Source: an uncultured Alphaproteobacteria bacterium (GTDB taxonomy: Bacteria > Pseudomonadota > Alphaproteobacteria > Rhizobiales > Beijerinckiaceae). From it: a DNA stretch of 64,000 bases. The notes under the pieces are model-generated. The model was not told the origin of the DNA. It saw only the letters and a list, made by a program, of their open reading frames with translations, and did no database searches. The stretch's first letter is position 1. Each line of letters opens with the position of its first letter. Below, piece by piece: positions 50,265-51,989 of this stretch. The translations under genes were made by a program, and so were the position numbers. Location of the stretch: positions 136,039 to 200,038 of the forward strand of contig CAVYFP010000019.1 of assembly GCA_963767805.1 (NCBI GenBank). The letters run 5' to 3'.

Positions 50265-50345
50265 CTAAATCGCCAGTAATTGCGTCACTTGTTCCGGCAA
50301 CTCGGCGCCCGTCGGTTCATATCCCGCGACGCGCAAAATCGCGTG
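50265..50345 (-). repeat. 81-bp direct repeat, copy 1: orphan duplicate of the 3' end of the Ntn-hydrolase gene
   Basis: 75/81 identical to 51909-51989; encodes HAILRVAGYEPTGAELPEQVTQLLAI-stop with no upstream coding frame. Confidence 0.95.
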
Positions 50346-50400
50346 GCCCGACCTCCCTCCTGCGCGGCCGCCGCGCCGGCTTCTGTCCTCATGTCGGCGC

Positions 50401-51835
50401 CTACGGCGCCTGCGCCCCGCAGAGCGTGCCATTGATCTGACATTGCGGCGCGATCCCGATCTGCTCCTGCTGCGCGTTCAACTTGCCGATCTGCGCCTGC
50501 GTATCGGCGTTGATGTCGGTTCCGGGATTGGCGCAGCCGCAGACCTGGCTTGCGCAACAACTGCACTGGTCGATTTCCTCCAGCGTCATGATCGCCTGCA
50601 GGCCGGCCTGGCTCGAAAGTCCGCCGCAGGCGTTTTGAAGGATGTTGGCTTTCTTGAGCGGATTTGGCGGCGGCGGCGCCGATTGCCCGATGCCGAGAGT
50701 CGTGCAAATCGCGGCGTCGCAACTATAGGGAATCTGCACGCCCTTTCCCGGCGCGGTCGCCGTACCCGCGCGTATGTCATTCCTGTAGCTGTCGCAGACC
50801 TGCTTGCACAGCGGACTCCCTTTCGACACGGGATAGGTCGCGCCGGGCGTGTAGAGCGGGCAGCCCTTGCCGCCCGCCATGTCCGGCAGACATCCGGTCG
50901 CTGGCGGATCGGGATGGTTGAGCTTTGGATTATGCGCGGCCGACCAGACATATTGCGGATGCGCCGCCGAACTGCTCGCTGGCGTCAGCGCGTTGGCGTC
51001 GCATGGCATGCCGGGCTGGCCAATCTCGAACGGGCCGTCATAGACCGGACATTTGCATTCGACGAGTTCATTGCCCGCGCTGTCGTACTTGCCGGTGTGA
51101 TAGCAGGGCGCCGTCATGCATCCGGCATATTTTCCCTGCGTGCAGGCCGTCGATCCGGTCGTGTAATTCGACGACATGACCGGCGAAAACACCGAGAGGA
51201 GTTGCGCGGTCGGGATCACCCAGTTGCGGTTGACGGCCTGACAGGCGGGCGCCTTGTTCCAGTCTGTGTAGTCATGCGGGCTGCAACCCGCGCCGTCATG
51301 CCCGCATGTCGCAGATAGTGCTGAGGTAAAGGTCGAGATTGAGGATCGCGTTGATGTCGACGAAATAGGGCACGGGCGGCGGATATTGCTGCGTGGTGAG
51401 CGCATAGCAGGTGCAATTCGCCGATTTGCCATCGCTCGACAAGGCGCAGGGCAGCGCCGGATTGACCGGCGTCGTCCCCGGCGCCGCCACCGGCGTGCTG
51501 ACCGCGGGGCCGGAATAATAGCAAAGCGCATAGGAGAAGCTTGGGCCGATCGGCGGCCGGCAGGAGAGGAAATTCTCGTTTTTGACCAGGATGTCCGCCG
51601 CCGCCGGGCCGAAATAGGTCGTGTAAAGGCTATTGTAATGGAAAGGATAGGGAATGCTCATGCCGGCCTGGCCGTAAAGGCCGAGCGAGCCTCTCATGCC
51701 GTAGAGGCCGCTGGCGCTATATTGGGCGGAGGCTGCGCCGGCGCCGAGGCACATCACGCCCAGGAAGCAAAGAAGCCGCGCAATCGGCGCGGCCCACTGG
51801 GGAAAAGCGGCGCCGGCTCGGCTCTCACTGCGCAT
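50401..51835 (-). CDS. Secreted cysteine-rich protein of unknown function (about 477 aa), frameshifted near 51313
   Basis: Signal peptide ending GAASA; about 28 Cys in the mature part, including CTC, CKC and CSCCASQVCGC; two ORF pieces joined by removing one base. Confidence 0.75.
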
Positions 51836-51908
51836 GGAACGACCTCGAATCAAAAACTCATTGAACAATATCAAATACGAGTAGGTATTATCCGTCCGCC
51901 GCGCAATC

Positions 51909-51989
51909 CTAAATCGCCAATAATTGCGTCACCTGTTCCGGCAGCTCGCCGCCCGTCGGTTCGTAGCCCGCGACGCGCAAAATCGCGTG
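51909..51989 (-). repeat. 81-bp direct repeat, copy 2: functional 3' end of the Ntn-hydrolase gene
   Basis: Encodes HAILRVAGYEPTGGELPEQVTQLLAI-stop in frame with the upstream gene. Confidence 0.95.

Follow-up and report, generated by a model that had tools for sequence, protein, structure and literature searches.

How does a single gene come to lie between two copies of its neighbor's 3′ end when no recombinase is encoded beside it? This question is raised by the window, a stretch of 64,000 nucleotides (positions 136,039 to 200,038 of contig CAVYFP010000019.1, assembly GCA_963767805.1) from a soil genome of the genus Methylocella, family Beijerinckiaceae. On its minus strand, a gene resembling the C45 family of hydrolases is followed by a gene for a secreted cysteine-rich (Cys-rich) protein, behind which the last 27 codons of the C45-like gene are found a second time. 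An initial annotation proposed that incoming DNA from a related lineage had carried its own allele of the gene end, restored the C-terminus of the resident gene, and displaced the old end. The explanation that we favor, and to which we grant about an even chance, is of this kind: an import together with the gene end of a close relative, that is, an insertion with long target duplication that host recombination, and no dedicated recombinase, would have produced.

The genome of the window is designated G000 (4.24 Mb in 44 contigs), and other G-numbers denote the relatives with which it was compared. The genus set comprises 58 genomes placed in Methylocella by GTDB, and many bins of this genus are long-read metagenome bins. 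A C-number after a genome denotes a contig, and the loci C27, C22, C1, C33, C14, and C43 lie on contigs of G000; C45 always means the hydrolase family.

The duplicated gene end

A repeat finder placed a direct repeat at 50265–50355 and 51909–51999 (91 nt, 89% identity). Within it, a core of 81 nt, the last 27 codons of the C45-like gene including the stop, differs at six positions (92.6% identity). One copy, copy B, is the working end of the gene and is orthologous to the gene ends of the relatives G071 and G077; the other, copy A, is an orphan (Table 1). The TAG stop is kept in both. Similarity between the copies begins exactly at the stop codon, beyond which the flanks are unrelated, and the 5′ border of the orphan is fuzzy, with partial similarity over about 10 nt. 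The 81-mer occurs exactly twice in the entire assembly, which rules out a chance match or a multi-copy repeat. Read in the minus-strand frame, five of the differences are synonymous (GGC/GGA, TAC/TAT, CTG/TTG, CAG/CAA, and TTG/CTG), and the sixth, GGC/GCC, exchanges Gly for Ala. The initial description of the duplication, both its direct orientation and its tally of differences, was confirmed by the repeat finder and the codon comparison. The name then given to the gene, an Ntn hydrolase, needs correction: the protein matches the C45 family only below threshold, with scores (44.5–57.8 bits against NF040521) short of the cut-off of 85.

The encoded C-terminus, ...EPTG(G/A)ELPEQVTQLLAI followed by the stop, is lineage-specific, being common to copies A and B and to G071 only. 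Over the 81 nt, A and B differ at 6 positions, B and G071 at 11, and A and G071 at 15. As to which copy is the donor allele and which the recipient allele, G071 has the same cassette and G077 is too divergent to tell.

The inserted segment and its cargo

The Cys-rich gene is the sole credible gene between the two copies, as had been noted at the outset. Its product, rich in cysteines and equipped with a signal peptide, has no match in Pfam, NCBIfam, or the PDB; the orthologue in G008 is an intact single open reading frame (ORF) of 479 amino acids. No recombinase, integrase, transposase, or insertion sequence (IS) was detected in the insert with Pfam and NCBIfam, and none was found in the entire gap between ispG and the DUF1345 gene in which the locus lies, so that the cassette is indeed free of integrase and IS. 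The insert and the cassette ends also show no inverted repeats or attC-like structure, and the insert has no terminal inverted repeats, transposase, or short target duplication. An integron, an IS, or an integrase element is ruled out on these grounds.

A short-read contig of G071 carries the DUF1345 gene, the C45-like gene, and the cargo in unbroken order, with 84% identity over 1,571 nt. Since this contig crosses the C45-like stop without a break, the junction between the C45-like gene and the cargo is independently confirmed; it either predates the split between G000 and G071 or was exchanged between them. The remainder of the G071 cassette is missing from its assembly. The Cys-rich gene has three unrelated genomic settings in Methylocella, and homology among them is limited to the gene itself. 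Its family is also present on 43 soil-metagenome contigs (35–76% identity), never adjoining a C45-like gene.

By tblastn, the cargo gene is spread over two frames in the window, and the intact C45-like protein of G077 matches three. The conserved genes ispG and ahcY and two others are likewise frame-split in G000, with 94–98% amino-acid identity on either side of the break. The breaks lie in ispG (45636–46939), near 42925, 51313, 52287, and 52917, and in ahcY (C22:167378–167380), and conserved genes of this assembly carry about one indel per kilobase. Given these equivalent splits in ispG and ahcY, the breaks in the C45-like and Cys-rich genes most likely reflect indel errors of the assembly rather than decay. 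Pseudogenization of the two genes is thus unproven, and apparent pseudogenes in G000 are not to be trusted at such an error rate.

The same architecture at other gene ends

The same gene end also flanks other cargo. Among the genus genomes, orphans of the C45-like end are found only in G000, G027, and G014. In G027, the C45-like gene is followed by an IS transposase, a Na/H exchanger, a Zn-ADH gene, and then an orphan of 129 nt at 82% identity; the IS copies are internal to the insert and do not lie at its borders. A conserved block that stands directly after the C45-like gene in G035, G017, and others resumes beyond this orphan, which therefore represents the old downstream side. In G014, a contig that joins the C45-like gene to the ADH gene (contig pair C29/C87) overlaps by 127 nt with a contig that carries the 3′ half of the ADH gene and the orphan.

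Three side observations concern these relatives. First, the order in G014 may be nested (C45-like gene, ADH gene, about 6.2 kb, the ADH 3′ half of 579 nt at 90.5%, and the C45 orphan); G014 is a fragmented bin that may mix strains, and this order was not relied on. Second, G027 (C1:645000–664900) and G030 (C23:42000–59165) have 5′-truncated C45-like copies, about 900 nt in length, at a great distance from the full gene. Their allele type matches that of other species (G035, G076, and G019), and the two genomes share 3 kb upstream of them at 95%; these copies may be large orphans that traveled with transferred DNA. Third, the stretch past the G027 orphan contains a RiboL-PSP HEPN gene together with a GmrSD_N-like one that an IS copy interrupts (11626–13218), which suggests defense genes in this variable zone.

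Comparison of G000 with itself revealed further ORF ends repeated 0.8–1.6 kb downstream at 86–93% identity, at C1, C22, and C27. The scan for bracketing gene ends required in its first pass that the repeat end near a stop codon, and a rescan dropped this constraint. The C33 locus is ruled out as a 3′-end case, its repeat being the 5′ end of panC (Table 1). In the seven verified cases, the distal border of the repeat lies 0–9 nt past the stop codon.

At C27, empty sites are available: more than 10 relatives (G077, G071, G001, G036, G018, G008, and others) have the end in single copy, and both G000 copies align with it. Judged by the flanks, the orphan retains the ancestral downstream sequence and the functional copy the ancestral upstream sequence. 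At the ahcY end, G001 has the whole structure of G000, with peroxidase cargo and orphan, and the orphans of both genomes retain the terminator hairpin that is found after ahcY in G077 and G071. In G008, the peroxidase gene stands directly behind ahcY and an orphan is lacking, a donor-type arrangement; G008 was rejected as the allele donor of this structure, as its allele lacks the diagnostic states. The ahcY end of G026 received an independent insertion, a Fic-domain gene with an orphan of 130 nt at 93% (C1:2874500–2879500, 1898–3103), and G022 has a further ahcY orphan. Thus, the architecture recurs at several gene ends in the genus with unrelated cargo.

The C27 insert has features of its own. 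It contains a nested 38-nt direct repeat, GAGCCGATCCAAGAAGAAkGGATTCATGAGCAAGGGCT, and a segment of about 100 nt that is multi-copy in G061 (four copies), G026, G005, G024, G080, G006, and G079 and single-copy in G000. This segment has no Rfam match, and no tRNA or known RNA was found at the junctions of the sister loci. A common mobile end motif was considered and rejected, the C27 element having no counterpart in the window.

Divergence of the copies

The ratio of synonymous to non-synonymous codon differences between functional copy and orphan varies among the loci. It is 5:1 at the C45-like end and 5:0 at C27 in G000, 5:3 at ahcY in G026, about 10:5 at the C45-like end in G027, 8:7 at ahcY in G000 (where the orphan reads KPDHDRH against KPDHYRY), and 3:3 at the DUF1345 end in G077, where the stop is lost. 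At C27, the functional copy has three to four derived synonymous changes and the orphan one to three, all at third positions; with an orphan almost free of neutral decay, these copies must have diverged as coding alleles. Young pairs are accordingly two coding alleles, as initially proposed for the focal pair, and old pairs show decay.

At C45, C27, and ahcY, both copies have lineage-specific states in common that are missing from the nearest sampled species, and any donor must therefore be a very close, unsampled relative. Furthermore, ahcY is a mosaic: TTR AGC states occur in the G000 orphan and in the functional copy of G001, which indicates that the copies exchange sequence.

Genomic setting of the locus

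The focal insertion lies in a hypervariable gap between two convergent genes, ispG and the DUF1345 gene, which are neighbors across a subclade of the genus. The gap measures 19 nt in G018, 1.6–5.3 kb in eleven other genomes, and 10.7 kb in G000. On the minus strand of the window, the order is DUF1345, a 4.6-kb block, the C45-like gene, the Cys-rich gene, the orphan, arsR, AHSA1, a small membrane protein, an SSF symporter, and a PNPOx-like gene (Table 1). The block from the PNPOx-like gene to arsR is missing from G071, G077, and G018. The 4.6-kb block follows directly on the DUF1345 stop codon and has a guanine–cytosine (GC) content of 0.558 against 0.637 for the window; G077 and G071 lack it, and no duplication flanks it. 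Just upstream of arsR, positions 50182–50199 form a perfect palindrome, TTCAACCA-TT-TGGTTGAA, which lies about 65 nt from the orphan and is probably the ArsR operator.

The C45-like gene is found in this gap only in G000, G071, and G077; elsewhere it has another, conserved locus. G077 is syntenic with the window and has ispG, 1.3 kb of low-GC DNA, a DUF1345 orphan, the C45-like gene, and DUF1345. Its C45-like gene is bracketed by a direct repeat of the DUF1345 3′ end (59–67 nt, 90%; 9662–9728 and 10980–11045 of C7:262000–281900), and the orphan has three derived non-synonymous changes (V>A, A>T, and I>T) besides its lost stop. The C45-like gene itself appears to have entered the gap by the same kind of insertion.

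Table 1. Positions of the features in the window and of the further bracketed loci in G000 (contig named before the colon)
Feature	Position	Strand	Description
ispG	45636..46939	+	Convergent gene, other wall of the gap; frame-split here
G000-specific block	46976..50214	-	PNPOx-like, SSF symporter, 77-aa membrane protein, AHSA1/SRPBCC, ArsR (Pfam)
arsR	49861..50214	-	First gene past the orphan
Copy A, orphan	50265..50345	-	Same 81 nt as copy B, weak similarity to 50355; then arsR-side flank
Inserted segment	50346..51908	-	1,563 nt between the copies; GC 0.631 (window 0.637)
Cargo gene	50401..51835	-	Secreted Cys-rich protein, unannotated family; one frame break near 51313, probably an assembly error
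Spacer	51836..51908	-	AT-rich, from C45-like stop to cargo start; common to G071
Copy B	51909..51989	-	Working last 27 codons of the C45-like gene, including TAG; continuous with gene body
C45-like gene	51909..52990	-	Ntn-hydrolase superfamily, sub-threshold; frame breaks near 52287 and 52917
G000-specific 4.6-kb block	53027..57606	-	SBBP beta-propeller lipoprotein, small secreted protein, bestrophin-like membrane protein
DUF1345 membrane-protein gene	57607..58287	-	Pfam PF07077; upstream neighbor
VIT-like gene end	C1:6719-7833		112 nt, 88%; orphan with indel
ahcY end	C22:165083-166799		Cargo: di-haem cytochrome c peroxidase (CCP_MauG)
Flippase-like gene end	C27:79391-80364		688-nt insert, GC 0.48; 143-190-nt duplication
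Duplicated 5′ end of panC	C33:49357-50562		199 nt, 91%
Region upstream of helicase-like gene	C14:3167-4518		145 nt; brackets L,D-transpeptidase-like gene
Binding-protein-like gene	C43:4285-6813		175-nt repeat extending 50 nt past the stop

How the insertion may have arisen

In the favored explanation, for which we infer both the recombination route and the donor, incoming DNA from a very close relative would have carried the cargo linked to that relative's own end of the C45-like gene, and it would have recombined with the resident gene through the short homology of the gene end. This could have occurred by a single Campbell-type crossover of a circularized fragment or by a linear fragment with one homologous and one illegitimate join, that is, by homology-facilitated illegitimate recombination. 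The 1.56-kb one-gene segment would thereby have come to stand directly behind the C45-like stop codon. The upstream copy B would complete the working gene, and the downstream copy A would be the displaced old end, still joined to its former flank on the arsR side. The event would be one layer in a stack of additions within the gap between ispG and DUF1345. The role of the orphan as displaced old end is suggested by analogy with the G027, ahcY, and C27 loci, where the polarity of the orphan can be read from the flanks. Repeat borders that lie 0–9 nt past the stop codon are expected under such recombination, because homology ends where the context of the donor changes. We regard the structure as a footprint of host recombination and not as a demonstrated mobile element.

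Several observations weigh against this explanation. First, the empty site that the initial annotation had led one to expect, with the C45-like gene followed directly by arsR, turned up neither in a DNA search of the genus genomes nor when ArsR and AHSA1 were looked up as exact proteins, and scanning metagenomes for the junction of orphan and arsR gave no hit. G077 does have the C45-like gene without the cargo, but its downstream region is different, and no relative has the arsR-side flank. Second, no donor, that is, a C45-like gene next to a Cys-rich gene, was seen in 401 genomes of the family or on the 43 metagenome contigs. Thus, the initial proposal of incoming related DNA that displaced the old end is supported by polarity at the analogous loci and lacks a donor for the focal event. 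Third, the two copies are closer to each other than copy B is to G071, which fits an in-situ duplication or gene conversion at least equally well, and the lineage-specific states that they share force the assumption of a donor from an unsampled sister lineage. Fourth, the first joining of a gene end to new cargo still needs an illegitimate step, and RecA is inefficient on 81 nt at 7% divergence. In addition, DUF1345 stands next to a C45-like gene in no sampled genome outside the clade of G000, G071, and G077; the orphan-side junction was seen in a single error-prone assembly of long-read type; and the unconstrained rescan yielded two candidates, which are unverified, with repeats that extend 27 and 50 nt past the stop.

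The main rival is an in-situ target duplication, in which the insertion itself would have copied the last 60–200 nt of the gene, perhaps when replication switched templates there or when staggered breaks were repaired. Identical at first, the two copies would later have been overwritten independently of each other, through homologous recombination with single-copy alleles from insertion-free relatives. We consider this rival rather unlikely, and it is the strongest of the alternatives. It accounts well for copies that behave as sister sequences with lineage-specific substitutions, as they do at C45, C27, and the ahcY end of G026, and for the distances among A, B, and G071. Older orphans (ahcY in G000 and DUF1345 in G077) decay as it would predict, the mosaic allele states of ahcY in G000 and G001 show that copies do exchange, and the C45-like gene entered the DUF1345 end although no native adjacency of the two genes was sampled outside the clade. 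It is also the reading adopted in the literature on long target duplications (PMC2853133). Its costs fall on the young loci, each of which would need an extra recombination event to yield purely synonymous differences and an undecayed orphan, and on a required preference for breaks 0–9 nt past stop codons. Moreover, no Ku was found in the G000 genome, which counts against this route and argues likewise against capture by non-homologous end joining.

A quite improbable alternative is an att-like, trans-mobilized, or homology-addressed cassette, in which the gene end and the cargo would excise as a circle and re-enter the same gene end. The same ends have been used independently (C45 at least twice; ahcY in G000/G001, G026, and G022), the inserts are of one-gene size, the Cys-rich gene wanders as a single-gene unit, and the swap of the TTR AGC segment fits excision and reintegration with different crossover points. 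A similar life cycle has been hypothesized for restriction-modification units (PMC2853133). However, no recombinase is present in or near any cassette, and the Cys-rich gene is elsewhere never accompanied by a C45 fragment. The C45, ahcY, DUF1345, and flippase-like ends have no common core motif, a result that speaks against the att-like, site-specific mechanism suggested initially. In addition, the repeats are the own allele of each lineage and not a traveling att sequence, their borders differ at one and the same gene end (81 nt in G000 and 129 nt in G027), and the metagenome scan for the junction returned nothing. In a special form of this idea, which is improbable in its own right, Methylocella would have recombinase-free, homology-addressed cassettes, each made of the last 60–200 nt of a conserved gene and one cargo gene, that loop out when their bracketing repeats recombine and insert again at this gene end in related chromosomes by a single crossover. 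If true, such cassettes would stack behind convergent gene pairs in the manner of an integron, with gene 3′ ends acting as attC and attI.

That the locus is an artefact of an error-prone metagenome assembly is very unlikely. The indel rate of the assembly and the restriction of the orphan-side junction to it give some ground for suspicion. On the other hand, the junction on the side of copy B is present independently in the short-read contig of G071, and chimeric joins fall inside shared sequence and would not yield a diverged duplicate past the cargo; the architecture also occurs in several independent assemblies, including the near-complete G026, G027, and G077. The orphan could also be what is left of a C45-like tandem duplication or second paralogue after most of it was deleted. 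This reading, compatible as it is with synonymous divergence between two once-functional paralogues and with the truncated copies elsewhere in G027 and G030, is extremely unlikely and largely refuted by the lack of a second full-length or long copy at the position of the orphan in the 58 genus genomes and at 55 named loci, by the same geometry at single-copy housekeeping genes such as ahcY, and by the single-copy empty sites of C27 in all close relatives.

Comparison with known systems

Integrase-mediated islands and prophages enter a tRNA or protein gene at its 3′ end, for which they bring a replacement. As in these elements, direct repeats of a gene 3′ end bracket foreign DNA at the locus described here and the gene stays intact. 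Unlike them, the Methylocella loci have no recombinase and no common core, the repeats at one gene differ in length (81 versus 129 nt), and the inserts range from 0.7 to 4.6 kb. Compared to integron cassettes, the loci are similar in being one-gene, promoter-poor units stacked at one site; they differ in having no attC inverted repeats, attI, or intI, and their brackets are pieces of a neighboring gene.

Campbell-type insertion-duplication is a laboratory technique that uses circular DNA with one segment of homology. When the homology is a 3′ end, the product is an intact gene, the insert, and a 5′-truncated orphan, as in the window. However, a natural source of circles is not known here, and the homology is short and 7% diverged. 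Methylocella silvestris BL2, a member of the same genus, is genetically tractable and would permit a bench test of the route.

C-terminal displacement in rhs, contact-dependent inhibition, and type VI secretion system genes produces arrays of orphan ends by homology-facilitated illegitimate recombination (Jackson et al. 2009 as cited; Kirchberger et al. 2017, PMC5361080). There, too, the event is anchored in a conserved gene body, a new 3′ end arrives with one or more downstream genes, the old end is pushed downstream, and successive events build arrays with no dedicated recombinase. In contrast, the tips of those genes are different toxin domains with immunity genes, whereas in Methylocella the new end is an allele of the same sequence and the novelty is an unrelated gene.

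The closest parallel is insertion with long target duplication, which was reportedly described by Nobusato et al. in 2000 (Gene 259:99). In this class, a short insert is flanked by direct repeats of 46–423 bp that are often 93–99% identical (Furuta, Abe & Kobayashi 2010 NAR, PMC2853133). The repeat is single-copy in insertion-free relatives and often overlaps the 3′ end of a gene, and no integrase or transposase is present; it has been hypothesized that such units insert, amplify, and are released in a cycle, with the mechanism unsolved (PMC2853133). The published cases all concern restriction-modification genes, and the DNA-breaking activity of these genes was taken as the cause (PMC2853133). 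The window shares with it repeats longer than 30 bp (81, up to 91 nt) around an insert smaller than 20 kb (1,563 nt), and an insert free of mobility genes; single-copy empty sites are seen at the sister locus C27, elsewhere in G000. Two differences stand out. First, the cargo is not of the restriction-modification type and comprises a Cys-rich protein, a Zn-ADH, a C45-like protein, a cytochrome c peroxidase, and a Fic protein. Second, the Methylocella events are stacked and nested at one hotspot, and their young copies differ synonymously only.

We place the locus in the class of insertions with long target duplication, a known class whose mechanism is unsolved. To our knowledge, such insertions have been reported since 2000 only for restriction-modification genes, without an established mechanism. 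The same footprint is found here with ordinary cargo, and independent lineages show it repeatedly at conserved gene ends that they have in common. Orphans of this kind also explain short "pseudogene" fragments that are annotated beside accessory genes. Collectively, the pattern points to a general host-recombination route of single-gene gain in soil Alphaproteobacteria that is not specific to restriction-modification genes.

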